This document shows positions 1 through 48,371 of a stretch of DNA of 64,000 nt, one piece after another. Origin of the DNA: Kiritimatiellia bacterium (GTDB lineage: Bacteria; Verrucomicrobiota; Kiritimatiellia; RFP12; UBA1067); assembly GCA_050949565.1 (NCBI GenBank), contig JBMNFY010000017.1:1431299-1495298 (forward strand), written 5' to 3'. Both the position numbers and the translations under genes were made by a program. The first letter of the stretch is position 1, and each line of letters begins with the position of its first letter. The notes below the pieces were generated by a model. It made no database searches, had not been told where the DNA came from, and worked only from the letters and a program-made list of their open reading frames with translations.

Positions 1-1
1 C

Positions 2-490
2 GATAAGCAGATCGCTGGTTTTCTGGCGAAGCCTTGCGATCCGTCGGACCTGTTGATGGAGGTCAACCGTATCCTGTTCGAGACCGCCGGTGCCGGACAC
101 GTCGCGGCAAGCGCGCCTGCGTTGCGTCGCTTGGTGGTCGCGGAACATGACGCTGTCCTGCGGCAGAAGCTGGAGGTCGAGTTCATACAGGCGGGCTTTG
201 ACGTGAAGGCGGTCGCTACGGGACCGGAGGCGGTCGAGGCGTGCGTCACCTTGCAGCCGCATGCCATCGTGATGCGTCTGGAACTCGCGGAGATGAGCGC
301 GGATGAGGTCGTCGCCATGCTGCGACGTCTCCCGACCACGCGCGAAACGCCAGCGATCGTCTACGGCATGGACCTGCCGGAAGCGCAGCTTGATCATGTG
401 GCCAATCTCGATGTCCCGCAGACCTGCATGCTGAAGGACCTGACGGTCAACTCCATTATTGATCGGACAATGGCCGTGACGGGCGCGTGA
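2..490 (+). CDS. Response-regulator-like protein with tandem receiver (REC) domains; 5'-partial. The second REC has Arg at the phospho-acceptor position, so it is a pseudo-receiver
   Basis: Frame open from nt 2. 'FLAKPCDPSDLL' at the start is the C-terminal end of a CheY-like REC domain. ORF 53..490 is a second CheY-like fold, but 'IVMRLEL' replaces the conserved Asp. Confidence 0.55.
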   Translation, partial: DKQIAGFLAKPCDPSDLLMEVNRILFETAGAGHVAASAPALRRLVVAEHDAVLRQKLEVEFIQAGFDVKAVATGPEAVEACVTLQPHAIVMRLELAEMSADEVVAMLRRLPTTRETPAIVYGMDLPEAQLDHVANLDVPQTCMLKDLTVNSIIDRTMAVTGA

Positions 491-546
491 CAAACGTCAT
501 TTAGGATTTGTGATTTAGGATTTAGGATTTAGGATTTGGCGCTTGG

Positions 547-1711
547 AACCACGGAGACACAGAGACACAGAGGTTTTTTGGGAGGCTCTGCTCCAACCGC
601 AGGTCGCGGGTCGAATGTCGCGGGTCAACCTCTCTTATTGCGACCACAAAGTGGCTCGCAATCTTGAGAGTAAAAGCGCTGCTCGGGTTTGTTTAACCAC
701 AGAGAACACAGAGAGCACAGAGGGTTTTGGAGGGCATGGATGCGTTTTTTTAACGCAGAGACGCAGAGGCGCGGAGGTTTTTTGGAGGGAGCGCTGCTCG
801 GGTTTGTTTAACCACAGAGAACACAGAGAGCACAGAGGGTTTTTGAGGGCAGGGATGCGTTTTTTTAACGCAGAGACGCAGAGGCGCGGAGGTTTTTTGG
901 AGGGAGCGCTGCTCGGGTTTGTTTAACCACAGAGAACACAGAGAGCACAGAGGGTTTTGGAGGGCAGGGATGCGTTTTTTTAACGCAGAGACGCAGAGGC
1001 GCGGAGGTTTTTTGGAGGGAGCGCTGCTCGGGTTTGTTTAACCACAGAGAACACAGAGAGCACAGAGGGTTTTGGAGGGCATGGATGCGTTTTTTTAACG
1101 CAGAGACGCAGAGGCGCGGAGGTTTTTTGGAGGGAGCGCTGCTCGGGTTTGTTTAACCACAGAGAACACAGAGAGCACAGAGGGTTTTGGAGGGCATGGA
1201 TGCGTTTTTTTAACGCAGAGACGCAGAGGCGCGGAGGTTTTTTGGAGGGAGCGCTGCTCGGGTTTGTTTAACCACAGAGAACACAGAGAGCACAGAGGGT
1301 TTTGGAGGGCATGGATGCGTTTTTTTAACGCAGAGACGCAGAGGCGCAGAGGTTTTTTGGAGGGAACGCCTGCTCGGGTTTGTTTAACCACAGAGAACAC
1401 AGAGAGCACAGAGGGTTTTGGAGGGCATGGATGCGTTTTTTTAACGCAGAGACGCAGAGGCGCGGAGGTTTTTTGGAGGGAACGCCTGCTCGGGTTTGTT
1501 TAACCACAGAGAACACAGAGAGCACAGAGGGTTTTGGAGGGCATGGATGCGTTTTTTTAACGCAGAGACGCAGAGGCGCGGAGGTTTTTTGGAGGGAGCG
1601 CTGCTCGGGTTTGTTTAACCACAGAGAACACAGAGAGCACAGAGGGTTTTGGAGGGCATGGATGCGTTTTTTTAACGCAGAGACGCAGAGGCGCAGAGGT
1701 TTTTTGGAGGG
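547..1711. repeat. Tandem satellite array 1: ~10 copies of a 115/116-bp unit. Each unit is two related ~57-bp modules, 'AACCACAGAGAACACAGAGAGCACAGAGGGTTTTGGAGGG' and 'AACGCAGAGACGCAGAGGCGCGGAGGTTTTTTGGAGGG'
   Basis: Direct inspection. The motif GCTGCTCGGG recurs at 678, 793, 908, 1023, 1138, 1253, 1369, 1485 and 1600. There are a few SNPs (gcgcGgagg/gcgcAgagg; gAgcgctgc/aAcgcctgc). The first copy is degenerate. Confidence 0.9.
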
Positions 1712-1756
1712 AGCTGCCCTGTGGGCTCTGCCGGGACTGCGGGATCTGCGAGTGGT

Positions 1757-1774
1757 GGCGGCGTGACCGCCGCC
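1757..1774. repeat. GC hairpin GGCGGCG-tgac-CGCCGCC, a member of a dispersed hairpin family
   Basis: Perfect 7-bp stem. Related copies are at 4844-4861, 9401-9418 and 16706-16723. Confidence 0.5.
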
Positions 1775-1859
1775 GGGCTGTGCGCTGGCGACTAAGTGTG
1801 AGAAACTAAGTGTGAGAAACTCCCAACTCCTAAATCCTAAATCCTAACTGTAAACTCCC

Positions 1860-2306
1860 ATGCGTTGTCCCAAATGTGGCCATTTAGATGATAAGGTGCT
1901 GGACAGCCGCGCGGCGCGTGAAGGCGCGTCGATCCGTCGGCGGCGGCAGTGTCTTGCTTGTGAGCATCGCTTCACGACTTACGAAGAGATCGTGAAGGAC
2001 GAGCTGCGCGTGGTCAAACACGATGGCCGGCGCGAAGAGTTCAGCCGGGAGAAACTTGTGCGCGGCCTGATGCGCGCCTGCGAAAAGCGTCCGATCAGCG
2101 CGGATCAAATACGTGATTTGGTCGATCAGGTCGTCGAAAGCTTCGAAGGCGAGAGCGAAGTGACGACGGAAAAAATCGGACAGGCGGTGATGGCGCGGCT
2201 GCACCGGCTTGATGATGTGGCCTATATCCGCTTTGCTTCGGTCTACCGCCGCTTCGCTGATGTCAACCAGTTCTTGCAAGCGGTCAAGGATATGGTGGAG
2301 AAGTAA
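1860..2306 (+). CDS. nrdR: Transcriptional repressor NrdR (zinc ribbon plus ATP-cone)
   Basis: The 148-aa ORF begins MRCPKCG...CLACEHRFTTYE, followed by an ATP-cone; the length is typical. Confidence 0.9.
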   Translation: MRCPKCGHLDDKVLDSRAAREGASIRRRRQCLACEHRFTTYEEIVKDELRVVKHDGRREEFSREKLVRGLMRACEKRPISADQIRDLVDQVVESFEGESEVTTEKIGQAVMARLHRLDDVAYIRFASVYRRFADVNQFLQAVKDMVEK

Positions 2307-3283
2307 ATTTGGGATTTAGGATTTGGAACCATGAAACACATGAAACTTCATGAAAATCAGAGGCTGCCCCTTGCCGCACAGAGCGCGACCCGCGCTATGT
2401 GTGGAGTTAGAAATTTAGGATTTAGGATTTGGAACCATGAAACACATGAAACTTCATGAAAATCAGAGGCTGCCCCTTGCCGCACAGAGCGCGACCCGCG
2501 CTATGTGTGGAGTTAGAAATTTAGGATTTAGGATTTGGAACCATGAAACACATGAAACTTCATGAAAATCAGAGGCTGCCCCTTGCCGCACAGAGCGCGA
2601 CCCGCGCTATGTGTGGAGTTAGAAATTTAGGATTTAGGATTTGGAACCATGAAACACATGAAACTTCATGAAAATCAGAGGCTGCCCCTTGCCGCACAGA
2701 GCGCGACCCGCGCTATGTGTGGAGTTAGAAATTTAGGATTTAGGATTTGGAACCATGAAACACATGAAACTTCATGAAAATCAGAGGCTGCCCCTTGCCG
2801 CACAGAGCGCGACCCGCGCTATGTGTGGAGTTAGAAATTTAGGATTTAGGATTTGGAACCATGAAACACATGAAACTTCATGAAAATCAGAGGCTGCCCC
2901 TTGCCGCACAGAGCGCGACCCGCGCTATGTGTGGAGTTAGAAATTTAGGATTTAGGATTTGGAACCATGAAACACATGAAACTTCATGAAAAGCAGAGGC
3001 TGCCCCTTGCCGCACAGAGCGCGACCCGCGCTATGTGTGGAGTTAGAAATTTAGGATTTAGGATTTGGAACCATGAAACACATGAAACTTCATGAAAATC
3101 AGAGGCTGCCCCTTGCCGCACAGAGCGCGACCCGCGCTATGTGTGGAGTTAGAAATTTAGGATTTAGGATTTGGAACCATGAAACACATGAAACTTCATG
3201 AAAAGCAGAGGCTGCCCCTTGCCGCACAGAGCGCGACCCGCGCTATGTGTGGAGTTAGAAATTTAGGATTTAGGATTTAGGAT
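2307..3283. repeat. Tandem satellite array 2: ~9 copies of a 106-bp unit. Each unit has an 11-bp-stem hairpin (CACAGAGCGCG-accc-CGCGCTATGTG) and ends in AAATTTAGGATTTAGGATTT
   Basis: ATTTGGAACC recurs at 2321, 2427, 2533, 2639, 2745, 2851, 2957, 3063 and 3169. Variation is aaaaTcag/aaaaGcag. No ORF of 60 aa or more in any frame. Confidence 0.9.
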
Positions 3284-3643
3284 TTGTACAAGTTGACTGT
3301 CTATATTCCGGAGTCGCATCTTGAGGTTGTGAAGGATGCGCTGTTTGCTGCGGGGGCCGGACGTTACGCCGCCTATGACCGTTGCTGCTGGCAGGTGCTG
3401 GGCCAGGGGCAGTTCCGTCCGCTCGCTGGCAGTGATCCGTTCATCGGGACACAGGACCAAGAGGAGCGTCTGCCCGAGTACCGTGTCGAGATGATCTGCG
3501 CCGATGATGTGGTCGCTGCGGTAACGGATGCGCTGCGCGCCGCGCATCCCTATGAGGAGCCGGCGTTTGATTTTGTGCGCTGCTCGGGTGTCGGCTCTGC
3601 CGGGACTGCCGGTGATGCGACGCATGCGCCGACGCACTCCTAA
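3284..3643 (+). CDS. Small conserved protein with a PII/CutA/Nif3-C-terminal-like fold (COG3323-type); function unknown
   Basis: TTG start. The 'MYKLTVYIPESHLEVVKDALFAAGAG...GQFRPL...HPYEEPAFD' pattern matches a widespread family of ~100-aa proteins. The family name is recalled, not computed. Confidence 0.5.
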   Translation: MYKLTVYIPESHLEVVKDALFAAGAGRYAAYDRCCWQVLGQGQFRPLAGSDPFIGTQDQEERLPEYRVEMICADDVVAAVTDALRAAHPYEEPAFDFVRCSGVGSAGTAGDATHAPTHS

Positions 3644-3785
3644 ATCCTTGTCTATAAATTGACAGGATTACATGATTTACATGATTTTCAGGATTGAATA
3701 ACATCATGTTAATCATGTAATCATGTCCTAAACTTACTCCATGGTTTTTTCGTGGCGAAGCCACGCGGCAGGCTAACTCCTAAAT
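3637..3785. mobile_element. 149-bp AT-rich MITE-like or sRNA-like element, copy A. It is bounded by 9-bp direct repeats CTCCTAAAT
   Basis: 100% identical to 43552-43700. It contains a -35-like TTGACA, direct repeats TACATGAT x2 and ATCATGT x2, the palindrome AACATCATGTT and a CGTGGC-gaag-GCCACG hairpin. The TAA stop of the 3284..3643 gene and the TAG stop of the 3780..4697 gene both lie in the terminal repeats. Confidence 0.7.
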
Positions 3786-4697
3786 GCAAACTTCTTCCGC
3801 GCCGGGCGCGGAAGGCACGATCACCGAGAGTGCTTTGGGGCGTACGTTGATCGTTACGGGAGTGGTGCCGATGATGTCGCCGTCGGCCTGTACGACGATC
3901 GGGGTTTCGCAGTCGATGGAAACACTGCGGCTGGCCGGCAGTTCGTGGATGATGCGGTTGACATGGCGCGGAAAGATGCTGCGCGGGAAGAGCTTGCGTA
4001 TGAAGTAGTACCACGGGTACTCAATCGCCACCTTCATGCAGATGATGCAGACATCCACCTGTCCATCGTCGGCTCGGACGTCCGGACAGTTGGGATGCAG
4101 CACGCGCACCAGCATACCGCAGTTTGAGATCAGCACGTCGGTCGCATCATAGGTGCGCGCTTCTTCGCCGTCGATGGAGATGGCCAGGTGTTGCGGCTTG
4201 GCCTGCAGCACTTTCCAGACGGCCGTCCCCACATACGCAGTGCGGCCGAACAGGCTCTTGCCCAGACGTGACGTGCGGTCGATGACCTCGGCATTGATCC
4301 CCACTCCGGCATTCAGCAGATAGGTGAAGCCGTTGATCAGCATGGCATCGATAGCGCGTAGCGCGTGCGGCCCTGCCGCAAGCGCCACGGCCGCACGGAT
4401 GTCGAGCGGGATGCCGAGTTCACGCGCGACCAGATTGCCGGTTCCCGCCGGCACGATGCCAAGCGGCACGTGTGTATCGGTCAAGGCGTGTGCCACGGAT
4501 GAGACCGTGCCATCTCCCCCGACCGCCACCACGCCGTCAAACCCTTCATGCAGGCGCGCGCTGACGACTTCGGGAATCGAAACGTCTGGCGTGACTGCAA
4601 AAATCTCACACTCTGACGAAAGGTCTTGCAGGGCCGTCTTCAGGACGGCGCGTGTCTCCTCGCCTATGGTCGGCGCTACTATGAACAGCAGCTTCAT
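3780..4697 (-). CDS. Lipid kinase of the diacylglycerol kinase catalytic-domain family (YegS/BmrU/DgkA-like)
   Basis: 305-aa ORF with a GGDGT motif and DAGK_cat architecture. Confidence 0.8.
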   Translation of the reverse strand: MKLLFIVAPTIGEETRAVLKTALQDLSSECEIFAVTPDVSIPEVVSARLHEGFDGVVAVGGDGTVSSVAHALTDTHVPLGIVPAGTGNLVARELGIPLDIRAAVALAAGPHALRAIDAMLINGFTYLLNAGVGINAEVIDRTSRLGKSLFGRTAYVGTAVWKVLQAKPQHLAISIDGEEARTYDATDVLISNCGMLVRVLHPNCPDVRADDGQVDVCIICMKVAIEYPWYYFIRKLFPRSIFPRHVNRIIHELPASRSVSIDCETPIVVQADGDIIGTTPVTINVRPKALSVIVPSAPGAEEVCI

Positions 4698-4722
4698 GCC
4701 GCTCAGATTAACAAAACGGTGA

Positions 4723-4806
4723 GCTAGTGGCTAGTGGCTAGTGGTTAGTGGTTAGTGGTTAGTGGTTAGTGGCTAGTGGCTAGTGGCTAGTGGTTAGTGG
4801 CTAGTG
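4723..4806. repeat. Heptanucleotide microsatellite (G[C/T]TAGTG) x12, 26 nt upstream of the lipid-kinase start codon
   Basis: Counted directly: three GCTAGTG, four GTTAGTG, three GCTAGTG, one GTTAGTG, one GCTAGTG. Confidence 0.9.
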
Positions 4807-4843
4807 GGGCGCGGCTACGGGACTGCGGGGTACTACCGGTGGT

Positions 4844-4861
4844 GGCGGCACATGTGCCGCC
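4844..4861. terminator. Perfect 18-nt palindrome GGCGGCACA|TGTGCCGCC just 3' of purB; putative intrinsic terminator without a U-tract
   Basis: Hairpin of the GGCGGC family with a conserved flank (CTACGGGACTGCGGG...GGTGGCGGC). Confidence 0.4.
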
Positions 4862-4902
4862 GGTCAAGCAGACGCTTGACCCTCCCGGTGCTTCGCAGGC
4901 CG

Positions 4903-7387
<2,485 letters not shown>

Positions 7388-7484
7388 CGTCAGCCCTTCG
7401 TTCGTTTTCCGATCATGCAAAAGGTTTCCGCCGCTGACGGAAACCCTCTGCAACGTTCGCGTGTCCGAGCGAACCGACGATGGC

Positions 7485-7664
7485 TTACGCCTCGATCGTC
7501 AGAACTTTGCGTCCTCTGTACATGCCGCAGGACTGGCACACGCGGTGCGTCTGCTGCGGGGCACCGCAACTCGGGCAACTCTGTGTCTGGGCGACGATCG
7601 CCTTGACCTGCCCACGGCGCTGACGCACCCGCATCTTCGACTTTTTCCTCTTTGGAACGGCCAT
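7485..7664 (-). CDS. rpmF: 50S ribosomal protein L32
   Basis: Hand translation gives MAVPKRKKSKMRVRQRRGQVKAIVAQTQSCPSCGAPQQTHRVCQSCGMYRGRKVLTIEA (59 aa). It is below the ORF-track cut-off. Confidence 0.85.
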   Translation of the reverse strand: MAVPKRKKSKMRVRQRRGQVKAIVAQTQSCPSCGAPQQTHRVCQSCGMYRGRKVLTIEA

Positions 7665-7675
7665 TTGTTCTCTCC

Positions 7676-8200
7676 TTACTTCTCTCTCGGTCGTGCGCGT
7701 TTCGAGCGCGACGCATCCAGATCTGTTTTCAACACGTCAAGCGCTGCCCACCGGTGATCTTTGCCCTCTTCGTGGCACCGGCACGCGGCATTGTTCAGGT
7801 TTGTCCCGCAAGTCATGCAGAGACCCCGGCACGATTCGCTACAAACCGGATAACCGGGAAGGGCAAGAATGATAGCTTCCCGGACCTCTTCGGTCAAGTC
7901 CACGAAGTCTGTTGTCGCATTTATTTCGTACGACTGGACAAATTCGGGTTCCACGACCTCCGTCACGAAGTTCTCCGCACAGCGCGAACAGACACACGTC
8001 AGCCGTTGGCGCACCTCGCCCCGCACCAGCAACTCGCTGCCGATCAGTTCCACCTTCAGCGCATAACACATGCCGCCTTCCGGCGTCACGAATTCGCTCT
8101 CGCCCAGATCCAGCAGGTTGTCCGCGGTCTCGCCACGGAACCATTCGCCGTCTTTCGCGAGGCGCGCGACATCAACGATCAAACGCCCCTGTGTCTCCAA
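7676..8200 (-). CDS. yceD: YceD/DUF177 protein (large-subunit rRNA accumulation protein) of the yceD-rpmF-plsX operon
   Basis: Operon context and Cys-rich C-terminus. The ORF to 8287 would overlap coaD by 116 nt, so a TTG at 8198-8200 is proposed as the start; this is uncertain. Confidence 0.6.
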   Translation of the reverse strand: METQGRLIVDVARLAKDGEWFRGETADNLLDLGESEFVTPEGGMCYALKVELIGSELLVRGEVRQRLTCVCSRCAENFVTEVVEPEFVQSYEINATTDFVDLTEEVREAIILALPGYPVCSESCRGLCMTCGTNLNNAACRCHEEGKDHRWAALDVLKTDLDASRSKRARPREK

Positions 8201-8723
8201 CTCCGCCTCCTGTCCGGATACACTGCTCCGGATGCTGGCGCATGTGCGCCTCGATATAGGTCTGAACCTGCGGCGGCACGAATGCACGGGTATCGCCGCC
8301 GTAACGCGCGATCTCGCGGATCATACTGGCCGTCACATAGCTGTAGCTCTCGTTCGGCATCATGAACAACGTCTCGACATCGGGTTCGAGCTTGCGGTTG
8401 GTCAGCGCCATCTGGAACTCATACTCAAAATCAGAATACACGCGCAGGCCGCGCACCACCACACCGATCCCACGGTTGCGACAGTAGTCAACCAATAAGC
8501 AGTCAAGCCGGTCAACCTCCACGTTTTTCATGCCGGCCGCCTCCGCGCTTTCGCGGATCATGGCCATGCGCTCTTGCAAGTCAAACATGCCGGTCGCTTT
8601 GAACGATACGCCGGCGACCACGACGATCACCTTGTCAAATAGCGACGCACTGCGCCGCAACAGATCAAAGTGACCCATCGTCAGCGGGTCGAACGTCCCG
8701 GGATATACCGCGATTTTTTCCAT
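8172..8723 (-). CDS. coaD: Phosphopantetheine adenylyltransferase
   Basis: MEKIAVYPGTFDPLTMGHFDLL... is canonical. Confidence 0.85.
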   Translation of the reverse strand: MEKIAVYPGTFDPLTMGHFDLLRRSASLFDKVIVVVAGVSFKATGMFDLQERMAMIRESAEAAGMKNVEVDRLDCLLVDYCRNRGIGVVVRGLRVYSDFEYEFQMALTNRKLEPDVETLFMMPNESYSYVTASMIREIARYGGDTRAFVPPQVQTYIEAHMRQHPEQCIRTGGGVGDTGAFDR

Positions 8724-8748
8724 ACGCTCCCTCTCTGTTACACGCCGG

Positions 8749-9318
8749 TCATCCGGCGCTTTCCGTACCGTTCATCCGGTAGATCACCAGCCGTGTGCGG
8801 CCGTAAGTCCGGTCGCGCCACAAAACCCAGCCCTCTACCTCTTCAGGCTGCCGCCTCACCGGCATTTCAGCGGCGAACAGCCCGTCCGCGCCCAACACCT
8901 GGTTTTCGCGGATCAGCCGCATCACCCCGGCGAAGCCCTGATCGAGCCCGGCCACATACGGCGGATCGGCGAAAGCGATGGTGGCCTGCCGTCCGCGCCC
9001 GGCACCTTTCAGCCAGCGCGACACGTCACTGCAGACCACCTCGCCCTCGCCCGGCATCAGCGCCGCGACGTTGGCCTTCAGCACGGCCACATTGCGCGGA
9101 TCCTGCTCGACCCACGTCACGTGACGCGCGCCGCGACTGTATGCCTCGATCCCTACCGCGCCCGAACCTGCGAACAGGTCAATGAACACGGCATCAGGGA
9201 TCACCGTCATCAGCATCGCGAAAAGCGCCTCGCGCACACGGTCCTGAGTCGGCCGCACCTTGTCGCCCGGCGGAACCTTCAACTTCCGGCCGCACATCTC
9301 GCCGCCTGAAATTCGCAT
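8749..9318 (-). CDS. rsmD: 16S rRNA (guanine966-N2)-methyltransferase RsmD
   Basis: 'DLFAGSGAVGIEAYSRGA' and 'FADPPY' motifs. The start is at the internal ATG MRISGG. Confidence 0.8.
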   Translation of the reverse strand: MRISGGEMCGRKLKVPPGDKVRPTQDRVREALFAMLMTVIPDAVFIDLFAGSGAVGIEAYSRGARHVTWVEQDPRNVAVLKANVAALMPGEGEVVCSDVSRWLKGAGRGRQATIAFADPPYVAGLDQGFAGVMRLIRENQVLGADGLFAAEMPVRRQPEEVEGWVLWRDRTYGRTRLVIYRMNGTESAG

Positions 9319-9400
9319 AGGGGGATAAGTATAGGGGATCGGGGCGCCTCGGCGCAACCCTCCAAGCGCGCGAGCACGCGGCGCTACCGGTGGCGGTGGT

Positions 9401-9418
9401 GGCGGCGTGAACGCCGCC
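9401..9418. terminator. GGCGGCG-tgaa-CGCCGCC hairpin 3' of the MFS gene
   Basis: Same hairpin family, with flank CCCACAGAACTGGA as at 16724. Confidence 0.4.
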
Positions 9419-9495
9419 CACAGAACTGGAGGGTGCGGCTACGGGCGCTGCCAGGGCTGCCGGTGGCGGCTCGCGGGGACGCTCGCCCTCCAGTG

Positions 9496-10755
9496 CTAAG
9501 TCCCGATCATGCGCCAGGCCTCCGCGCCACGCGCAGGGCGCTTCCCAGGCAGGAGGGCAATGAGGACAGCGCCGGTGAGGGCGAGGACGATCAGGACGGA
9601 GAAGCCGAGTGCATAGCTCTTCGTGGCTTCGTTGTACAACGCGCCGACCAGCATCGGGAAGGCTGATTCGGCCACGCCGTCTGCCACCAGGATGATCCCC
9701 ATGACACGGCCTAATGCGCGTACGCCGAAGAGGTCACCGGCCATCAGCGGGATGATCATGTAGTCGCCGCCCAAGCCGATGCCGAAGATCAGCGCGAAGA
9801 GGTAGATGCGTCCCGGGAAGGCCGGCATGAGCAACAGCGGGATGGCGCACGCCACGAGCATGTAAATCAGTATCATCACGCGTTTGCGGCTGAAACGGTC
9901 GGCCAGCCAGCCCATCAGCACGCGGCCGACAAGGCTCGACAGCAGGACGAGGGAGAGGATGCGTGCCGCGCCTTCTTGGGTAAAGGCTTGGTCGCGCAGA
10001 TAGAGCTTCAGGTGCTGCATCACGCCGCCGACCGCGCCGATCGAGCACATGCTGCCGAATGCCAGCAGATAAAAAGCGGGTGAACGCAGGATCGCGCCGA
10101 TCTCTCCCTTGGGGGCGGCCGGTGGCGGCGCGGGGGCGGCCGGTGGCGGCGCGGCATCGGGGCTCTTAAGGATGAGCGGCAGGGGAAGCGCCAGCAGGAC
10201 GATCAGTCCGCCCAGCGTGAGCAACGCGTAGTGCCAGCCCATGACGTGTTGCAGGCGCGCGGCCAACAACGGCACCAGCGCGCCGCCCGCGCCGATACCG
10301 AGATAGGCGATGCCCATGGCTTTGCCACGGTTTTTTTCAAAGCGCCGCGCGATCAGCACTTGGCAGGGCAGCGGCCCGCCGCAGACGTACGCCAGCGCAT
10401 TGAGGATATAGAAGAGGTAGAAGAGCGGCAGGGTGTCGGCCCTGCTCAGCCCTGCCAGCGCGAGACCGCCCATCAACGCGCCTGCCGCCATCATGCGCTG
10501 CGGCCCGAAGCGGTCGACCATCCATCCGGCGATAAAGCCGAACAGCGGGCCGACCAGCAGTTTGCCCAGCGCGTTACCGCTGGTCACGATGGCGCGTGAC
10601 CAGCCGTATTCCCGGACCATGAAGTCATAGAAAAACGGTAGCCCGTACAGGGCGAACCCCACGAGTGCGAAGAGCGCCAGAAAAGCTGCTACTACAGTGA
10701 GTGCCTTCGAAGAGCGCCAGTTGGCGGTCGTGCGCGAGGGTGTGTTTGTCGTCAT
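9496..10755 (-). CDS. MFS transporter
   Basis: 419 aa, about 12 predicted TM helices, with a central proline/alanine-rich loop. Confidence 0.8.
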   Translation of the reverse strand: MTTNTPSRTTANWRSSKALTVVAAFLALFALVGFALYGLPFFYDFMVREYGWSRAIVTSGNALGKLLVGPLFGFIAGWMVDRFGPQRMMAAGALMGGLALAGLSRADTLPLFYLFYILNALAYVCGGPLPCQVLIARRFEKNRGKAMGIAYLGIGAGGALVPLLAARLQHVMGWHYALLTLGGLIVLLALPLPLILKSPDAAPPPAAPAPPPAAPKGEIGAILRSPAFYLLAFGSMCSIGAVGGVMQHLKLYLRDQAFTQEGAARILSLVLLSSLVGRVLMGWLADRFSRKRVMILIYMLVACAIPLLLMPAFPGRIYLFALIFGIGLGGDYMIIPLMAGDLFGVRALGRVMGIILVADGVAESAFPMLVGALYNEATKSYALGFSVLIVLALTGAVLIALLPGKRPARGAEAWRMIGT

Positions 10756-10874
10756 GGCTTCAAGGTCCGGGGGCTAAATGGTTAACAGTGGGAGCACTTG
10801 CAAAACCCTCGGATCACGGGCAAGATGCCCGTGCCACATCTGCAGGCCAAGAGTTTTGCAAGGAGCTCATCGAA

Positions 10875-13052
10875 TTACTTGACCAGCACGGTCAGACGGC
10901 GGACCTCGTATTGGCCGCCGTTACCCATGAAGGTGTAGTCAGGATGCTCACCGGCGGTGTTGTTGCCGATACCGATATCGCAAGCTGCGCCGCCGTTGAA
11001 GTTGTTGTACGCGAAGAGCGTCATCCTGTTCTTCCAACTGTGGACCTGCATGCAGCCGTAGCTGCCGTCGGCGGCGGGCTTATCGTCGAAGTCATACTTG
11101 GAGCCGTTCGCGCCGGGCAGGTTCAGGCCGTTCGGATTGCCGTAATTCACCGGCCAGAACTCGATGTTGCCGCCGTCCGAGTTGTCCAGCGTGGGGATGC
11201 CCTCGATGTTGGAACGCACCGTCAGGTTGGCGACCTTGGTCTGGTGGTGGATGCCGCTGCGGGCGTGCGGGATGCCCAGTTTCTTGGCGTCTTTCGTGAA
11301 GGCGTCCATGACCGTGCAGACGTAGCGGATGCTCTCGGCCTGCTGAAGCTGGAGCACGTACGCCACGCGCGTGAAGGCGCCTGCGGTGCCGCTGGCGTCG
11401 ACGGAGTACTTGGGCGGCGTCGCACCGAAGTTGCCGTTGAGCGGCAGGTCGATTTCGTAAACTTTGCGGAAGCCCTGAAGCTCGGACATGCCTAGTGCAC
11501 CGTCCAGTTTGGGCTTGTTGCCGCAGCGGAACGCGCCGGCGGGCAGGCCCAGACCGTTGACGAGGTTGGGCTCGGCGAGCTGGTCCCAGGCGAAGCGCAT
11601 CGCCATCGGCGCGGTGATGCCGGAGGCGGAGAGCACAACGCTGTTGCCTTCGATCACGGCGTCGGCCTTGCGATAGAGTCCGTCCTGGCCGCAGAGTTCG
11701 AACCAGGTCGGCGGCTTGCCGTCACGCGTCTTCAGCCCGTCGGCATGGTCAAACGTAACACGCATCTTCGCGCCTTCGATGGCGAAGGATTTGTAGACCG
11801 GTCCTTCCCAGCGGATATCCTTCATGCCGTAAGTGCGGTTGAGCGCCTGGTTGGCCATGCGCAGACCCACATCCTGCTTATTGCGCGGATGGATGTCCTT
11901 GATGTTGCCGATATCGTTGATCACGGTATAGCCGGTGTTGGGAATCGCCGCAGGCACGGCGGCCTGTGCCTCCCAGATACCGGGCAGGTGCGTGGCACGG
12001 GATGCGCCGTAGTTGTAGGGCGCGAGTTGCACCAAGTAGTAAGGGAAGTCGCCTTGGCCCCACACCTTGCGCCAGCCGTTGACGAGCGCCTTGGTCTTCT
12101 CCAGATAGAGCATGCCCTCGCCGTTGTTGGAGCAGCCCTGATACCAGATTGCGCCTTTGATGGCGAAAGGCACGAGGCCCGCCATCATGCCGTTGTAAAG
12201 CACTGTAGGCTCTTGGTGTCTACCCTGGGCGTTCGAGAACACCAGATGCTGCGGGAATCCGGGCGCTTCGCTGAGCGCCTGTCCGGCCGCACTCTTGGCT
12301 TTGGCGTCGGCGATCCACGTCTGCATGGCGGAGATATAATCGCTGAGCACTTTTGTGTGCAACTCGGTACCGGGAATGGCGGTATCGACCCGCGCCTTGA
12401 TGGAGGCCAACGCAGGCAGTCCGTCAAAGCCGCACGGCGGCGTCCACGGCTCAATGCGTGTGCCGCCCCACGAGGAGTTGATGAGGCCCACCGGCACCTT
12501 GAGCACCTGATGCAGGCGGCGTCCGAAGAAGTAGGCCACGGCCGACTCATCGCTGATGCCTTCGGGCGTCGTCACTTCCCATGCGGCCTGAATGTTCTTT
12601 TCCGGCAGGGGCTTGAAGGCCTTGGGTGCCTTGAAGTGACGGATCATCGGGAAATTCGCGGCAGCGCGCTCTTGTTCGGCGTTGTCCACATTCGCCATGC
12701 GCCACTCCATGTTCGACTGTCCGGAACAGAACCAGACTTCGCCCACGACCACGTTGTTGAAGGTGACCGTGTTTGCACCGGAAACGGTGAAGGTCGCGGG
12801 ATCGGACGAGGCTTGCAGCGCCCTCAACGTCACGCGCCACGCGCCGTCTTTGCCGGCCTCGGTTTTCTGCGTCTGTCCCGCGAACGAAACCGTCACCTGC
12901 TCGCCCGGCGCGGCCCAGCCCCAGACTGGTACCGGTTGCCCGCGCTGCAAGACCATGTTGTGGTTAAAGATATTCGGCAAACTGACATCCGCCGAGACCA
13001 CCCCGGCGAACAGTGCGGCACCGGCCGCTAAAACGAACCCCATCCGTTGCAT
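10875..13052 (-). CDS. Secreted sialate O-acetylesterase-like SGNH hydrolase with a C-terminal beta-sandwich region
   Basis: Signal peptide; the 'FCSGQSNMEW' catalytic motif of the SIAE/DUF303 family. Confidence 0.7.
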   Translation of the reverse strand: MQRMGFVLAAGAALFAGVVSADVSLPNIFNHNMVLQRGQPVPVWGWAAPGEQVTVSFAGQTQKTEAGKDGAWRVTLRALQASSDPATFTVSGANTVTFNNVVVGEVWFCSGQSNMEWRMANVDNAEQERAAANFPMIRHFKAPKAFKPLPEKNIQAAWEVTTPEGISDESAVAYFFGRRLHQVLKVPVGLINSSWGGTRIEPWTPPCGFDGLPALASIKARVDTAIPGTELHTKVLSDYISAMQTWIADAKAKSAAGQALSEAPGFPQHLVFSNAQGRHQEPTVLYNGMMAGLVPFAIKGAIWYQGCSNNGEGMLYLEKTKALVNGWRKVWGQGDFPYYLVQLAPYNYGASRATHLPGIWEAQAAVPAAIPNTGYTVINDIGNIKDIHPRNKQDVGLRMANQALNRTYGMKDIRWEGPVYKSFAIEGAKMRVTFDHADGLKTRDGKPPTWFELCGQDGLYRKADAVIEGNSVVLSASGITAPMAMRFAWDQLAEPNLVNGLGLPAGAFRCGNKPKLDGALGMSELQGFRKVYEIDLPLNGNFGATPPKYSVDASGTAGAFTRVAYVLQLQQAESIRYVCTVMDAFTKDAKKLGIPHARSGIHHQTKVANLTVRSNIEGIPTLDNSDGGNIEFWPVNYGNPNGLNLPGANGSKYDFDDKPAADGSYGCMQVHSWKNRMTLFAYNNFNGGAACDIGIGNNTAGEHPDYTFMGNGGQYEVRRLTVLVK

Positions 13053-16705: not shown

Positions 16706-16723
16706 GGCGGTGTAAACACCGCC
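16706..16723. terminator. GGCGGTGT-aa-ACACCGCC hairpin 3' of the giant CotH gene
   Basis: Hairpin family plus the CCCACAGGACTGGA flank. Confidence 0.4.
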
Positions 16724-16747
16724 CACAGGACTGGACCGCGCGCCGCC

Positions 16748-42413: not shown

Positions 42414-42684
42414 TCCGGGCCGAGGGAACCATCCTCTCTACGTCACCCTTTTATCATTTAGCACATCCAATTTAATCACATGCGGCGCAGAATGCAACAC
42501 AGAAACACAAATTTTTTCAGGAAATTTTTTCAAGGGCATAACTCCTAACTCCTAAATCCTAACTCCTAAATCTTCCTTGGAAGGAGATATCGCATTGCCT
42601 CCAGGGCGGTTTACGTGCCATAATCCCGCCTCACACATGCCGCATGGTCCCGGATGGTCGGGACAACGGCCTGAAGACACAGCT

Positions 42685-43155
42685 ATGATCGCCGATCTCA
42701 ATCCGCTTCATTATTTTACCACCCCTTGGTTCTGGTCCTCTTTCATCGGTTGGACCCTCGCCCAATCGATCAAGATGACCGTCGGCTTTGTCCGGACCCG
42801 GAAGATTGATTTCCGCTACCTGCTCAGCACCGGCGGCATGCCCAGCGCCCACTCTGCCATGGTCTGCGGCCTCTGCACGTCGGTCGGCCTGACCGAGGGA
42901 TTCGACTCGCCGGTCGCCGCGCTCGCGCTCGGCATCGCCGCCATCACAATGTTCGACGCCACCAATGTCCGGCGTGCCGCCGGCCATCAGGCGCGCGTGC
43001 TCAACGTGATGATCGAGGAGCTGTTCAAAGAGCATAAGCTACGCCACACGCGCCTCAAGGAATTACTCGGCCACACGCGCAAAGAGGTCTTTGCCGGTAT
43101 GCTCGTCGGCATCGCGGTGGCGCTGCTGGTCGTGCACTTCTGGCCGGCCGCGTAA
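42685..43155 (+). CDS. Divergent PAP2 / DUF212 (YuiD-like) membrane protein
   Basis: 'GGMPSAHSAMVCGL...' acid-phosphatase-like motif; the start is at an internal ATG. Confidence 0.6.
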   Translation: MIADLNPLHYFTTPWFWSSFIGWTLAQSIKMTVGFVRTRKIDFRYLLSTGGMPSAHSAMVCGLCTSVGLTEGFDSPVAALALGIAAITMFDATNVRRAAGHQARVLNVMIEELFKEHKLRHTRLKELLGHTRKEVFAGMLVGIAVALLVVHFWPAA

Positions 43156-43156
43156 G

Positions 43157-43545
43157 GCGCTGCTCGGTTTAACCACAGAGGCACGGAGGCACAGAGGTTT
43201 TTTGGAGCAACTAAGGGGCAGGTAATTAGACGACCACAAGAGGTTCAAGGGTTCAAGGGTTCAAGAGGTTCATCGGGATCGGGATCGCTATCGGGATCGG
43301 ACAGAACAGACAAAAACAGCGCAGCACTTTTACTCTCGCGGCTGCGGGGCGCTGCGTGGCCCAACAAAGAGAGGCTGACCCGCGACATTCGACCCGCGAC
43401 CTGCGGCGGTAGCGATACCGATACCGATAGCGATACCGATAGCGAACTAATGCGGGCGGAGCCCGCAACCCAATTCTTACCACGAAGTCACGAAGGAACA
43501 CGAGGGGTCCAAAAACCTCTGTGCCTCCGTGTCTCCGTGGTTCAA
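43157..43545. mobile_element. MITE-like element of ~385 bp with ~35-bp terminal inverted repeats (AACCACAGAGGCACGGAGGCACAGAGGTTTTTTGG / reverse complement). Internal (GGTTCAAG)x3, GGGATCGGGATCGCTATCGGGATCG and its near-inverse CGATACCGATACCGATAGCGATACCGATAGCG
   Basis: Direct inspection. The TIR module matches the units of array 1 (547-1711) and partial copies at 48190-48272 and 63582-63710. Confidence 0.7.
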
Positions 43546-43551
43546 CAAAAA

Positions 43552-43700
43552 CTCCTAAATCCTTGTCTATAAATTGACAGGATTACATGATTTACATGAT
43601 TTTCAGGATTGAATAACATCATGTTAATCATGTAATCATGTCCTAAACTTACTCCATGGTTTTTTCGTGGCGAAGCCACGCGGCAGGCTAACTCCTAAAT
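43552..43700. mobile_element. 149-bp AT-rich element, copy B (identical to 3637-3785), flanked by CTCCTAAAT direct repeats
   Basis: Base-by-base identical to copy A. The TAG stop of cimA (43695-43697, minus strand) lies inside the right repeat. Confidence 0.7.
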
Positions 43701-45296
43701 CCGCGCGCTGCGAGGCTGCGCGGCCGCGCGGGTTTCGAAGAGCTTGTGCTCGATGCTGTCCAGCAACGCTTGCCACGACGCCTCGATAATGTTTTCGGAG
43801 ACGCCCACAGTGCTCCACTGGCGTGTGCCGTCGCCGGACTCGATCAGTACGCGCGTCACCGCCCGGGTCGCCTCTTCCGGATCAAGGATGCGCACCCGGT
43901 AGTCCGTCAGCGCGATCTGCTCGATCTCAGGATAGAAGCGCGTCAGGGCCTGGCGTAGCGCCGCGTTGAGCGCGTCAACCGGACCCTGCCCTTCGCCGGC
44001 CGTCAGCCCGGTCACGCCGCCGACCTTGATCTTGACCGTGGCTTCAGAGAGGCACGGCTCTTCGTTGCCGCGCTTCTCGACAATCACGCGGAAGCCCTCT
44101 AACTCGAAGAAGGGATGGTGCTGGTTGAGCACTTTCTGCAGCAGGATCTTAAAGGAGCCATCCGCCGACTCGTAGGAATAGCCCTGCTCCTCGCGCCGCT
44201 TGACCTCGTCCAGAATCGCCCGCGCCCGCTCTTTGTCCAATCCGCTGAAATCGGTGCCCAACTCGGCGGCCTTCATCATCACGTTGGACGCGCCCGATAA
44301 TTCGGAGACCAGCACATGGCGCTGATTGCCCACCGCCTCGGGGGCGATGTGCTCGAAGGTGCGCGTGTTTTTCTGGATGGCATTGACATGCGCGCCCGCC
44401 TTGTGACTGAAGGCTGAGCGTCCCGTGTAAGGCTGACGCGGGTCCGGCCGCTGATTGGCCAGGTCGTCGGTCACCAGTGAAACCTCGCGCAGCCGGCGCA
44501 GCCGCTCGGCGCCCACGCACTCAAACCCCATCTTCAGTTCGAGCGCGGGGATGATCGTGGTCATGTTGGCGTTACCGGTGCGTTCGCCGTAGCCGTTGAT
44601 GCAGCCCTGCACCTGACGCGCACCGGCACGCACGGCTTCCAGCGAACTGGCCACCGCCAACCCGCCGTCATTGTGCGTATGGATGCCGACCTGCGCATCG
44701 GGCAATGCCGCGCACACTGCCTGTGTGATCGTGAAAACCTCGTGCGGCAGGGTACCGCCGTTGGTATCGCAGAGCACCACACCAGCGGCCCCCTCGCGCA
44801 TCGCCATCTGTAGCGTGTTCAGCGCATATTCTGGATCATCCTTGTAGCCATCGAAAAAATGCTCGGCATCAAAAAACACGCTCCGCCCCGCCGCCCGCAG
44901 GAAACCCACGGTGTCGGCGATCATCTGCAAGTTGTTCTCGCCGGTGGTGCGTAGCACATCGCGCACGTGCATCAGCCATGATTTGCCGTAGATCGTGACC
45001 CACTCGGTCTCTGCCGCCAGCAGGCCGGCGAGTTGCGGGTCGCCCTGCGCGTCCAGATCCACGCGCCGCGTGCTGCCGAACGCGACGATGCGGGCGTGCG
45101 ACAATTGCTCCTTGCGGATGTCGTCGAAAAAACGGCGGTCACGCGGGTTTGACCCCGCAAACCCTCCCTCGATAAAATCGACCCCGAACTCATCCAGCAG
45201 ATGCGCGAAACGCACCTTGGCTGTATCCGAGAAGGAGATGCCCTCGCCCTGCGCCCCGTCGCGCAGCGTCGTGTCGTAGATGTAGACTTTTTCCAT
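43695..45296 (-). CDS. cimA: (R)-citramalate synthase / 2-isopropylmalate synthase family (CimA-like)
   Basis: 'YDTTLRDGAQ...EGGFAGSNPRD' resembles the Geobacter-type CimA N-terminus; C-terminal LeuA-dimer-like region; 533 aa. Confidence 0.7.
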   Translation of the reverse strand: MEKVYIYDTTLRDGAQGEGISFSDTAKVRFAHLLDEFGVDFIEGGFAGSNPRDRRFFDDIRKEQLSHARIVAFGSTRRVDLDAQGDPQLAGLLAAETEWVTIYGKSWLMHVRDVLRTTGENNLQMIADTVGFLRAAGRSVFFDAEHFFDGYKDDPEYALNTLQMAMREGAAGVVLCDTNGGTLPHEVFTITQAVCAALPDAQVGIHTHNDGGLAVASSLEAVRAGARQVQGCINGYGERTGNANMTTIIPALELKMGFECVGAERLRRLREVSLVTDDLANQRPDPRQPYTGRSAFSHKAGAHVNAIQKNTRTFEHIAPEAVGNQRHVLVSELSGASNVMMKAAELGTDFSGLDKERARAILDEVKRREEQGYSYESADGSFKILLQKVLNQHHPFFELEGFRVIVEKRGNEEPCLSEATVKIKVGGVTGLTAGEGQGPVDALNAALRQALTRFYPEIEQIALTDYRVRILDPEEATRAVTRVLIESGDGTRQWSTVGVSENIIEASWQALLDSIEHKLFETRAAAQPRSARI

Positions 45297-46683: not shown

Positions 46684-47991
46684 CTAGATCATTCTCAGTT
46701 TAACCGGCTCTTCATTCAGTACGCCCGCGGCCCGGATTTCGCGCAGCGCCGCGTCCATCTCTGCGCCTTTAGCCGGATGTGTCAGGATCACCACCGGCAC
46801 ATATCCGGCATCGGCCGCCAACTCAGCGGGCGGCTCTTGCTGCGTGGCCGCCAGGATGCTCACGCCGTGACGGCCGAGAATGGTCGTCATCGTGCCCAGC
46901 GAACCGGCCTTGTCCAGCACCATCAACCGCACGTAGTAGCGGCTGACAATCTCTGCGGCGGGGCGCACGCGCAACTGACCCTGATTGGCCGTACACACGC
47001 CGCGCCGATAGCGCGACCGGCCCGACATCAGGTTGCGCGCGATGTCGCCGATATCGCCGATCACGGTGCTGGCCGTAGGTTCGCGTCCGGCCCCGCGCCC
47101 GTAATAGAGCGTATCGCCGCTGAGGTCGCCGTGCACCATCGCCGCGTTGAACACTTGGTTCACCGAAGCCAGCATGTGCGTGAGCGGCACCAGCGTGGGA
47201 TGCACGCGCACCTCCACCTCGCCGGCATCGCGCTTGACCACGGCCAGCAGCTTGATGCGGTATCCGAACCCGGCCGCGAATTTGACGTCCATGCCCGACA
47301 GATTGCGGATGCCCTCCACCAGCACCTGATCCAGCGGCACGTGAAAGCCGTACGCCAGCGAAGCCAGAATGACCGCCTTGTGCGCCGTATCCAGCCCATC
47401 GATATCCAAGGCTGGATCGGCTTCGGCATAACCGGCCTTCTGCGCCTCTTTCAACACTTTGGCAAACGGCAACCCCTCGCGCTCCATGCGTGTCAGGATG
47501 TAATTGCAGGTGCCGTTGAGAATCCCGTGGATGCTCTGGATCTCATTGCCCGCCAGCCCCTCGCGCAACACGCGGATGATCGGGATGCCGCCGCCCACGC
47601 TCGCACCGAAATAGATGTCTACGCCGTTCTTCTCGGCGGCGCCGAAAATCTCCTCGCCGCATTCAGCCAGCAGCTTCTTGTTGGCCGTGACCACCGACTT
47701 GCCGGCATTCAGCGCGGCCAGCACGAAGGTTTTAGCCACACCGGTGCCGCCGATGAGTTCCACGACGATCTGGATGGCGGGGTCATTGATGATCGTCATC
47801 GCGTCGGTCGTCAGCAACGCAGGATCGACCTTCACACCACGGTCAGTCGTGATGTCGACATCCGCGATACGCTTGAGCACGGTCTCAACGCCCAGCCGCT
47901 GCGCCATCACCTTGCGGTTGCGCTGCAGGCCGTCCACGACGCCCGCGCCCACAGTCCCGAATCCGATAAGCCCTACACCGATCTGCTTCAT
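46684..47991 (-). CDS. hom: Homoserine dehydrogenase
   Basis: 'IGVGLIGFGTVG' Rossmann motif and C-terminal ACT domain; 435 aa. Confidence 0.9.
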   Translation of the reverse strand: MKQIGVGLIGFGTVGAGVVDGLQRNRKVMAQRLGVETVLKRIADVDITTDRGVKVDPALLTTDAMTIINDPAIQIVVELIGGTGVAKTFVLAALNAGKSVVTANKKLLAECGEEIFGAAEKNGVDIYFGASVGGGIPIIRVLREGLAGNEIQSIHGILNGTCNYILTRMEREGLPFAKVLKEAQKAGYAEADPALDIDGLDTAHKAVILASLAYGFHVPLDQVLVEGIRNLSGMDVKFAAGFGYRIKLLAVVKRDAGEVEVRVHPTLVPLTHMLASVNQVFNAAMVHGDLSGDTLYYGRGAGREPTASTVIGDIGDIARNLMSGRSRYRRGVCTANQGQLRVRPAAEIVSRYYVRLMVLDKAGSLGTMTTILGRHGVSILAATQQEPPAELAADAGYVPVVILTHPAKGAEMDAALREIRAAGVLNEEPVKLRMI

Positions 47992-48189
47992 ACCCTTTGC
48001 CTTCCTGTGGCTGTCAAAAAAACGAAGGCTATAGGGTAGTAAAAAACAGGAAGAGGAACAAGCTTAAGACGAAGCCGAAGATCGGTTAGCCTAAAAAGAG
48101 CAGTTGAACCGTCAACTCTCTTTGGTTTCTGGTTTCAAGGCTTCATGGTTTCATCCAAATCGGGATCGGGATCGCTATCGGGATCGATT

Positions 48190-48272
48190 GTTTAACCACG
48201 GAACACACCGAACACACGGAAAGGCATGGCTCTGTTTCCGTGTGTTTAGTGTGTTCCGTGGTTCCAATCAGA
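48190..48272. repeat. Long hairpin: a 29-bp stem with two mismatches, AACCACGGAACACACCGAACACACGGAAA ... TTTCCGTGTGTTTAGTGTGTTCCGTGGTT. It is a MITE-TIR-like 'GTTTAACCAC' module folded on itself. GGGATCGGGATCGCTATCGGGATCG sits upstream at 48161
   Basis: Direct inspection. Confidence 0.7.
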
Positions 48273-48371
48273 AATTGCGTTCTGCACCAAACAGGTGCGG
48301 CGAGGATCGCGATGAAAGCCAATGTTTACGCGGCTTTGCTCAAAATCCGTACGCCCAACTGCCGTTTTTAG

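Follow-up and report, generated by a model that had tools for sequence, protein, structure and literature searches.

Tandem arrays of short extragenic repeats are known from Pseudomonas fluorescens SBW25, in which repetitive extragenic palindromes (REPs) and their doublets (REPINs) form arrays such as one of 12 units of 184 bp (Bertels & Rainey 2011, PMC3116915). REPs are tied to a small gene of nuclease or transposase type, that of the REP-associated tyrosine transposase (RAYT), and occur singly, as inverted doublets that form hairpins and in tandem (PMC3116915). Here we analyse a 64,000-nucleotide stretch of DNA (the window) from a Kiritimatiellia bacterium (contig JBMNFY010000017.1, positions 1,431,299 to 1,495,298), in which two tandem arrays of about nine units each lie on either side of the regulator gene nrdR. 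As head-to-tail, non-coding repeats with units in the 10–150-bp range (115 bp × 9.0 and 106 bp × 9.2), both arrays are minisatellites, and in themselves they are ordinary, if large, bacterial ones. Their units are built from a short module of three sub-repeats that, elsewhere in bacteria, brackets genes of the GxxExxY family in inverted pairs. We conclude that the arrays probably derive from end pieces of these nuclease cassettes, which resemble miniature inverted-repeat transposable elements (MITEs) in lacking an open reading frame (ORF) and were amplified in tandem by unequal recombination in particular strains.

Like REPs, these modules are short extragenic repeats associated with a small nuclease-type gene, and they are found as single copies, inverted doublets and tandem arrays. 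However, each REP is itself an imperfect palindrome of 20–40 nt with a GTAG or CGTC tag and is specific to a lineage, and RAYT is an HUH Y1 enzyme encoded beside them, whereas the modules are triple direct repeats that recur verbatim across phyla and enclose a PD-(D/E)XK nuclease gene between an inverted pair. We therefore rejected an identity with REPs: the module consists of three direct sub-repeats, is not self-complementary and has no GTAG/CGTC tag. The genes between module pairs belong to PF13366 and not to PF01797 (no search of the genome for RAYT was made). The likeness to MITEs is closer in outline, because the element at 43157–43546 of the window is small, lacks an ORF and has terminal inverted repeats, and elements of this kind have many intergenic copies, vary in presence between strains and share their termini with a coding ‘parent’. 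The differences are that no target-site duplication was seen, that each terminus contains a triple repeat of its own, with many sequence types that are interchangeable, and that the parent encodes a 125-aa protein of nuclease fold rather than a DDE, HUH, serine or tyrosine transposase.

Other intergenic repeats share single aspects of this arrangement. Mycobacterial interspersed repetitive units (MIRUs) are head-to-tail units of 40–120 bp in operon spacers, co-oriented with the flanking genes, much like the nrdR arrays, and they vary in copy number between strains, as the nrdR arrays may do; unlike the latter, they carry short ORFs that overlap the flanking stop and start codons, and we know of no link between MIRUs and a nuclease cassette or cross-phylum modules. 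Pneumococcal BOX elements (boxA–boxB(n)–boxC), the bacterial interspersed mosaic elements (BIMEs) of Escherichia coli and neisserial intergenic mosaic elements (NIMEs) are likewise assembled from short intergenic modules that occur in either orientation, one of them in tandem copies of varying number, but to our knowledge they are genus-specific and have no gene embedded between module pairs. In cyanobacteria, short tandemly repeated repetitive (STRR) heptamers are said to harbour mobile-looking modules of 21–27 nt nested in intergenic heptamer tracts, reportedly described by Elhai and colleagues in 2008; the likeness is one of design, as the sequences differ, and these repeats are not known to be associated with a gene. 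Finally, ORF-bearing intervening sequences of 23S rRNA place a small ORF in the loop of a long inverted-repeat stem within a host transcript, but they sit in rRNA helices and are cut out by RNase III, whereas the GxxExxY cassettes lie in protein-coding operons.

Each module starts with AAC(C), followed by three sub-repeats of 8–10 nt. The unit of array 1 is a dimer of two ~57-bp modules, M1 (CACAGAG type) and M2 (CGCAGAG type), and the unit of array 2 contains one module (CATGAAA type). When we clustered ORFs near 120 cross-phylum loci that contain such modules, no family occurred in more than eight loci, and the productive lead was a five-locus cluster of GxxExxY proteins. At two loci (L154 and L249), a 123-aa ORF is arranged as AACCACAGAGAACACAGAGAGCACAGAG, 8 nt, ATG ... 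TGA, 3 nt, CTCTGTGTTCTCTGTGTTCTCTGTGGTT, and the ORFs bracketed in this way match TIGR04256 (‘GxxExxY’) and PF13366 (PDDEXK_3). Across 27 GxxExxY genes, several of which were not the reason for which their locus had been retrieved, the flank-to-flank inverted-repeat score had a median of 23.5, compared with 7.5 for random controls, of which the 95th percentile was 10.5. The type of module varies between loci but is matched within each: CATGAAA in L035 and L073, CGCAGAG in L075 and L076, CACAAAG in L076a, CGCGAAG in L112, CAGGATT in L115, CACGGAT in L273 (a contig from a viral collection) and CACAGAG in Acidobacteriota. All six GxxExxY genes that were picked by protein homology alone (L275, L279, L280, L281, L283/L284 and L287; Kiritimatiellae, Desulfuromonadaceae, Verrucomicrobiota and others) had modules of the same type on both sides, with the upstream module ending 0–20 nt before the ATG and the downstream module beginning 0–5 nt past the stop codon. 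A search with a three-sequence GxxExxY alignment added two loci on viral contigs, one of them with clear modules.

The module types of the nrdR arrays are found among these gene ends. The array-2 28-mer forms both GxxExxY flanks in L035 and L073; the M1 28-mer is the upstream flank in L154, L249, L261 and L270 (Acidobacteriota); and between M2 and the L075 and L076 flanks there are three differences. All three types are thus ends of the kind that pair around GxxExxY genes elsewhere, and the array units are probably ORF-less derivatives of cassette ends. Tandem copies of modules also arise beside the genes themselves, with two copies in L035 and one in L073 at the same site, 97-nt units × 2.9 in L075 and L076, 61-nt units × 2.6 in L076a and 44-nt units × 2.8 in L115. 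Furthermore, an 89-nt hairpin of CATGAAA type lies 3′ of the GxxExxY gene (~776–960) in L284 and is missing from L283. The empty L283 allele keeps TCAACCATG, so its junction looks less like an intact insertion site than like the product of a deletion between short repeats. No direct repeat that could be a target-site duplication surrounds either the L284 hairpin or the element at 43157–43546.

GxxExxY proteins of ~125 aa belong to a family with the PD-(D/E)XK nuclease fold, for which an AlphaFold model has a predicted local distance difference test (pLDDT) score of 94.6. Among their catalytic residues, E-x-K is invariant and D is conserved in at least 90%. The family (PF13366/TIGR04256) comprises 35,195 clusters at 50% identity, and a sequence search of the PDB returned no relative. 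An earlier survey listed GxxExxY as being of unknown function, with many transfers between bacterial divisions (PMC3424549). In the literature that we could cover, which was incomplete and excluded database family descriptions, searches with the module sequences and with GxxExxY, PDDEXK_3 and PF13366 turned up no account of flanking repeats, and the link between module and gene appears to be undescribed. Many of the top-scoring GxxExxY representatives (P0279–P0428) are two-domain proteins of ~260–290 aa, which could be tandem cassettes or fusions produced by read-through across modules.

Going beyond the arrays, we tentatively propose, with rather less than even confidence, that modules and GxxExxY/PDDEXK_3 genes together constitute undescribed pan-bacterial selfish cassettes of ~450 bp. 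Such a cassette would consist of a minimal Cas4/RecB-like nuclease gene between inverted ends, each of three 8–10-nt sub-repeats; the nuclease would recognize its own module type, and ORF-less derivatives would be the source of widespread intergenic hairpins, of the Kiritimatiellia mosaics and of minisatellites such as those at nrdR. Comparison of strains suggests how the arrays could have grown. Contig L009 encodes an NrdR that is 100% identical, with flanking genes that are 98–99% identical, and has neither array: the 139 bp upstream of its nrdR are unrelated hepta- and octamer repeats, and the 45 bp downstream are four ATTTAGG heptamers. In L004 and L008, the same downstream site holds a single unit, an 85-nt element within the ATTTAGG tract, and the 106-bp period of array 2 corresponds to this element plus the heptamers flanking it on both sides. 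At array 1, L002 has a single unit between AGCGCTGC and AGCTGCC microhomology; 3′ of nrdR, it carries a different insertion, of 176 bp, within the heptamer tract. A unit may therefore first have landed in an existing short-repeat tract (the ATTTAGG run at array 2; AGCGCTGC/AGCTGCC at array 1), where flanking direct repeats (14–20 nt at array 2) would have permitted a first duplication by unequal recombination or replication slippage. The homology of 106–115 bp between units would then favour further expansion and ongoing homogenization by homologous exchange. A GxxExxY nuclease supplied in trans might recognize the sub-repeats, three per end, and spread or process the modules, leaving arrays as by-products.

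We then considered how widely the modules occur. The exact 24-mer of M1 (AACCACAGAGAACACAGAGAGCAC) gave at least 120 matching stretches in contigs that represent one genome per species, where ~0.004 would be expected by chance on our own estimate from the 596-Gb size of the collection. Among the 80 matches listed, at least 13 phyla are represented, cultured isolates included: Planctomycetota, Chloroflexota, Verrucomicrobiota, Chlamydiota, Pseudomonadota, Acidobacteriota, Gemmatimonadota, Cloacimonadota, Desulfobacterota, Nitrospirota, Bacteroidota, Fibrobacterota and Hydrogenedentota. Three matches with archaeal labels are doubtful; one of them (L195, binned as Methanosarcinales) has flanks almost identical to those of an Anaerolineales contig (L192) and is probably a binning error, so occurrence in archaea is unproven. 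The shared part is the ~28-nt module alone, in unrelated flanks, and in most cases it makes up one of the arms of a long hairpin. A 20-mer of array 2 occurs on at least 119 metagenome contigs, where many module types are concatenated in both orientations. The view of the earlier note that arrays like these are rare in bacteria was overstated, given the REP/REPIN arrays of SBW25 (PMC3116915) and the module arrays of a Pseudoalteromonas plasmid and a metagenome-assembled genome (MAG) of Fibrobacterota.

The Pseudoalteromonas array lies on the ~439-kb megaplasmid CP076682.1 of P. shioyasakiensis A316 (L250, 2350–3310), near dptF of a phosphorothioation restriction system. It comprises four unannotated tandem units of ~240 bp, each a CACAGAG-module hairpin with a loop of ~70 nt, in a cultured gammaproteobacterium. 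The array of the Fibrobacterota MAG (L207, 6459–6748; 77 bp × 3.8) contains an exact CACAGAG module and runs off the end of its contig. Separately, a digester contig (L018) carries a CRISPR array at 32–3067, with the repeat GTCGCGCCCCATGCGGGGCGCGTGAATTGAAAC, and a CATGAAA module at 4594.

Conservation of the module sequence across phyla, together with a sub-repeat period of 8–10 bp and three sub-repeats per module, could also point to a binding site. In such a case the nrdR arrays would be platforms of 27 modules and 81 sub-repeats, spaced at about one helical turn, that titrate or assemble the GxxExxY nuclease or another factor, whether to act as decoys, to insulate or to anchor the nucleoid. 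The endings of the modules (...AA, ...AG and ...AT) also follow the protein clades. We nevertheless judge this explanation improbable: the arrays are missing in near-identical strains and are thus dispensable, and the near-identity of the units fits recent expansion better than a function maintained over a long time.

Near-identical tandem units of 106–115 bp are prone to assembly errors, and short-read assemblies of this locus give only one to three units, which raises the question of whether the arrays are mis-expanded repeats. This appears extremely improbable. A 645-kb Joint Genome Institute (JGI) contig (L001) matches window 1–12306 at 99.91% and has the same 9 + 9 units, with the internal variants placed differently, so that two assemblies differing at 0.09% of positions agree on the copy number; and low counts are what short-read assembly, which collapses such repeats, is expected to yield. 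The two assemblies show 11 differences over 12.3 kb, seven of which fall inside the arrays (16% of the length) and one more in a heptamer tract. All seven array differences swap variants that are already found in other units. Gene conversion or unequal exchange would be expected to leave such a pattern, which points to transfer between units and not to new mutations. Across contigs with an identical NrdR, we counted 0, 1, 2, 3 and 9 units; the absence in L009 is solid, and the counts of one to three come from assemblies that collapse repeats.

Several observations weigh against deriving the arrays from nuclease cassettes. A tblastn search of the 64-kb window with ten diverse GxxExxY proteins gave no hit, and L001 likewise contains no GxxExxY gene; the closest named relative is a protein (P0216) of a Kiritimatiellae MAG. 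Neither a filled and empty pair for a gene-bearing cassette nor a target-site duplication was found. The correspondence between protein clades and module types is suggestive but not significant (Mantel test relating module similarity to protein identity; r = 0.19, p = 0.07). That the window assembly and L001 are independent is an assumption based on their divergence of 0.09% and, because the counts of one to three units come from short-read assemblies, graded variation in copy number is unproven. Finally, at a sufD–sufS site in Pyrinomonadaceae, the module pair is retained while the protein falls to 72–81% identity; the pair is thus better conserved than the protein, which a function at the host or RNA level would explain at least as well as the decay of transposon ends would.

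This RNA-level role is the main rival explanation, although we regard it as unlikely. An inverted module pair would form a stem of ~28 bp in an operon transcript, where RNase III-type processing would release or silence the inserted gene, and the nrdR arrays would be transcribed spacer RNA whose half-stems and hairpins affect the stability or processing of nrdR mRNA. Besides the conservation of a module pair at one orthologous site over a long divergence, the tight packing of GxxExxY cassettes between host genes, with which they are co-oriented on both sides, suggests read-through transcription, and the modules abut start and stop codons. Complete palindromes are very stable (z-scores of −9.2 and −6.4). 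The modules of both arrays all run in the sense direction of nrdR and, given that only ~45 nt upstream of the gene are common with L009, nrdR may be read through from upstream. However, because the array modules are all direct repeats, they cannot pair with each other; the plus strand of the array-1 unit is no more structured than its shuffles (z-score −0.4); adjacent inverted modules in mosaics often differ in type and so cannot pair; and pairing alone leaves the verbatim conservation of 24–28 nt across phyla unexplained. Rfam 15 yielded no matches in the window at the gathering score and, in a permissive search of 450–3800, noise only (E ≥ 0.4, with scores well under the gathering threshold). 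As a means of telling RNA from DNA ends, we looked for a G–U wobble bias between arms and saw none by eye, the mismatches being too few. An origin from cassette ends remains our preferred reading.

Given their position on both sides of nrdR, the arrays might be thought to regulate this gene, for example by activating or repressing it from upstream and by stabilizing its mRNA as a 3′ untranslated region. Position is the argument for this idea, which we consider largely refuted and very improbable. The exact NrdR protein is recorded on many contigs, some of which lack one or both arrays, and the same kind of array lies beside unrelated genes. No NrdR-box-like site (ACACWATATATWGTGT, ≤3 mismatches) is present in the entire window, in agreement with the earlier note, and a scan of 400–3900 for sigma-70 promoters and intrinsic terminators gave no convincing sites: there is no promoter-like site in the arrays, and nine weak terminator-like matches fall once per array-2 unit on the minus strand, with none on the nrdR strand. 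A scan for tRNA and tmRNA genes was negative. A third array is located ~7.6 kb upstream of the window (L001, 1–560), 5′ of a T2SS-F-like gene, and contains at least five degenerate array-2-like units of ~100 bp in the opposite orientation, each composed of a CATGAAA module, CCTAAAT heptamers and a CCGCGC hairpin. The earlier note had implied a special relation to nrdR and had held that the same arrays at many loci would mark a generic satellite; with this third array, the module arrays of other bacteria, module cores at hundreds of loci, a different insertion in L002 and an identical NrdR without arrays in L009, the special relation no longer holds. The arrays have no nrdR-specific role, and they are strain-specific and, being absent in near-identical strains, dispensable. 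At most, they lengthen or structure a transcribed spacer and serve as substrates for recombination.

The suggestion that the arrays act as recombination hotspots fared better, in so far as rearrangement breakpoints coincide with these repeats. On a 42.7-kb contig (L003, 9680–9760), nrdR with one array-1 unit adjoins a gene for an Asp/Glu racemase, which takes the place of the response-regulator gene. The two parts meet in a CACGAAG-type module with the usual linker, as a result of either a genuine rearrangement or a chimera made in assembly. In L004 and L005, leuA (window 43695–45296) directly follows the 119-aa ORF downstream of array 2, and the genome has therefore been rearranged at the 150-bp repeat listed in Table 1. 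The two direct copies of that repeat (3636–3785 and 43551–43700) enclose ~40 kb of housekeeping genes, including purB, plsX and rpmF.

Table 1. Coordinates of repeats and genes in the window
Feature	Position	Strand	Description
ATTTAGG heptamer tract, directly after the response-regulator stop codon	499–537	+	Tandem Repeats Finder, 7 bp × 5.6
Solo triple-repeat module (GAACCACGGAGACACAGAGACACAGAGG + T-run), outside the tandem array	546–578	+	94% complementary to the MITE right terminus, 43511–43543
Inverted homologue of the interior of the 43.2-kb MITE	590–690	+	Inverted repeat, 101 nt, 78% complementary to 43313–43413
Array 1	675–1714	+	9 units of 115/116 bp; unit = M1 (AACCACAGAGAACACAGAGAGCACAGAGG) + linker + M2 (AACGCAGAGACGCAGAGGCGCGGAGG) + linker
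GC-rich hairpin GGTGGCGGCGTGACCGCCGCC, within the unique sequence that separates array 1 from nrdR; dispersed family	1754–1774	.	Read from the sequence; similar at ~4841, 9395 and 16712
ACTAAGTGTGAGAA × 2.2, then CCTAAAT heptamers up to the nrdR start	1791–1858	+	Last ~45 nt are the sole upstream sequence in common with array-less L009
nrdR, 148 aa	1860–2306	+	Pfam Zn_ribbon_NrdR 7e-22, ATP-cone 5e-23; NCBI name NrdR [Kiritimatiellia bacterium]
Array 2	2305–3278	+	9.2 units of 106 bp; unit = ATTTAGG heptamers + CATGAAA-type module (AACCATGAAACACATGAAACTTCATGAAAA) + spacer + GC hairpin
ATTTAGG tract touching the TTG start of the next ORF	3261–3285	+	In L009, the tract (× 4) alone separates nrdR from the ORF
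119-aa ORF 3′ of array 2	3284–3643	+	NCBI name ‘NIF3’; weak P-II-like Pfam match below cut-off
150-bp element with CATGATT-type palindrome (3661–3727)	3636–3785	+	Perfect second copy at 43551–43700; fold z-score −6.4
MITE-like element, 36-nt inverted termini of CACAGAG/CACGGAG module	43157–43546	+	Termini 92% complementary; at this site in 10/10 strains examined
ORF-less palindrome: CACGGAA-type module, 12-nt loop, inverted module	48194–48263	+	Fold −53 kcal/mol, z-score −9.2
Solo CGCAGAG-type module, T-run, GGAGGG linker	63584–63623	+	93% to array-1 M2

The arrays were delimited with Tandem Repeats Finder (98% matches and a score of 2013 for array 1; 99% and 1927 for array 2; Table 1). Array 1 had been placed at 547–1711 with about ten units: its existence stands, but it has nine units and a later start, and 547–674 is not tandem. 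For array 2, the coordinates and the count of about nine 106-bp copies were confirmed. Together the arrays amount to ~2.0 kb, slightly less than the ~2.1 kb of the first estimate. The modules of array 1 are trailed by a T-run and a GGAGGG-type linker, and that of array 2 by a spacer and a GC hairpin instead. This hairpin (CCGCACAGAGCGCGACCCGCGCTATGTGTGG) folds with 7 + 6 pairs and one internal mismatch, so that its presence was predicted correctly but not its proposed 11-bp stem. Array 2 contains no ORF of at least 50 aa on either strand. In array 1, ORFs of 104–128 aa (543–926, 1380–1766 and, on the minus strand, 1095–1409) are generated by the repeats and have no Pfam match.

The 447-bp gene between the arrays is nrdR, as first read, because its product contains both Zn_ribbon_NrdR and ATP-cone domains. 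Its neighbours are genes for a response regulator, a small ORF and a lipid kinase. The ATTTAGG heptamer, in either orientation, also edges nrdR and the next ORF; towards this end of the window, most genes have such ATTTAGG/CCTAAAT tracts at their borders, and the tracts provide an AGGA immediately 5′ of some starts. Another heptamer, GCTAGTG/GTTAGTG, is repeated 12 times at 4723–4807 between the lipid-kinase and purB genes, and holds one of the differences from L001. A family of GC-rich hairpins (GGTGGCGGC-loop-GCCGCC) occurs at 1754–1774, 4841–4861, ~9395–9425 and ~16712–16740, often beside a motif resembling GGGACTGCGGG; a similar motif, GGGACTGCCGG (~3600), encodes some of the residues in the C-terminal tail of the 119-aa ORF.

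Several other classes of repeat were considered for the arrays and rejected. They are not a CRISPR array, because whole units, including the parts between modules, are 98–99% identical and no unique spacers exist. A ToxI-like array of a type III toxin–antitoxin system would have ~36-nt repeats 5′ of ToxN/AbiQ, whereas these units are 106–115 nt and the downstream genes are nrdR and the 119-aa ORF with its weak P-II-like match. Plasmid centromere or iteron arrays (sopC and parC) would lie next to genes for partitioning or replication initiation, and the neighbours named above are not of these kinds. Resemblances to integron attC sites, a DnaA-box cluster, boxA-like sequences, Mu ends and recombination signal sequences (RSSs) were dropped, as the positions that would form their cores vary from copy to copy, and intrastrand-triplex repeats (PMC4666352) have a different motif.

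Modules extend well beyond the arrays in this genome. A simple detector found 43 modules in the window, with 0–1 expected from Markov-1 simulations, and all of them lie outside the longest-ORF map; the intergenic DNA of this Kiritimatiellia MAG consists of mosaics of heptamer tracts, GC hairpins and modules. The reading of the array-1 unit as two ~57-bp modules that match dispersed MITE termini was borne out by alignment with the termini of 43157–43546, the palindrome at 48194–48263 and the solo copy at 63584–63623. Because MITE termini, palindromes and solo copies share one module design, the phrase ‘MITE-terminus-derived satellite’ is correct as far as it goes. The ORF at 42577–43155, on the DUF212 side of this element, is not on record. 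The spacer between the homoserine dehydrogenase gene and uxaC (window 47991–48880; L251–L260) measures 601, 889 or 980 bp among strains with an identical LeuA and is a hypervariable module mosaic.

Taken together, these comparisons indicate that the arrays say nothing about the regulation of ribonucleotide reductase, and that the origin of their building blocks is what matters. The association of modules with GxxExxY genes is a variant of the MITE/REPIN theme that is apparently undescribed and directly testable, and the sequence-matched triple-repeat ends provide a concrete candidate substrate for the PF13366/TIGR04256 family. This link would explain why at least 13 phyla have verbatim copies of intergenic hairpin arms of 24–28 nt. 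It also accounts for intergenic DNA that is hypervariable and prone to rearrangement, at which short-read assemblies break in Planctomycetes–Verrucomicrobia–Chlamydiae (PVC) and other environmental bacteria.

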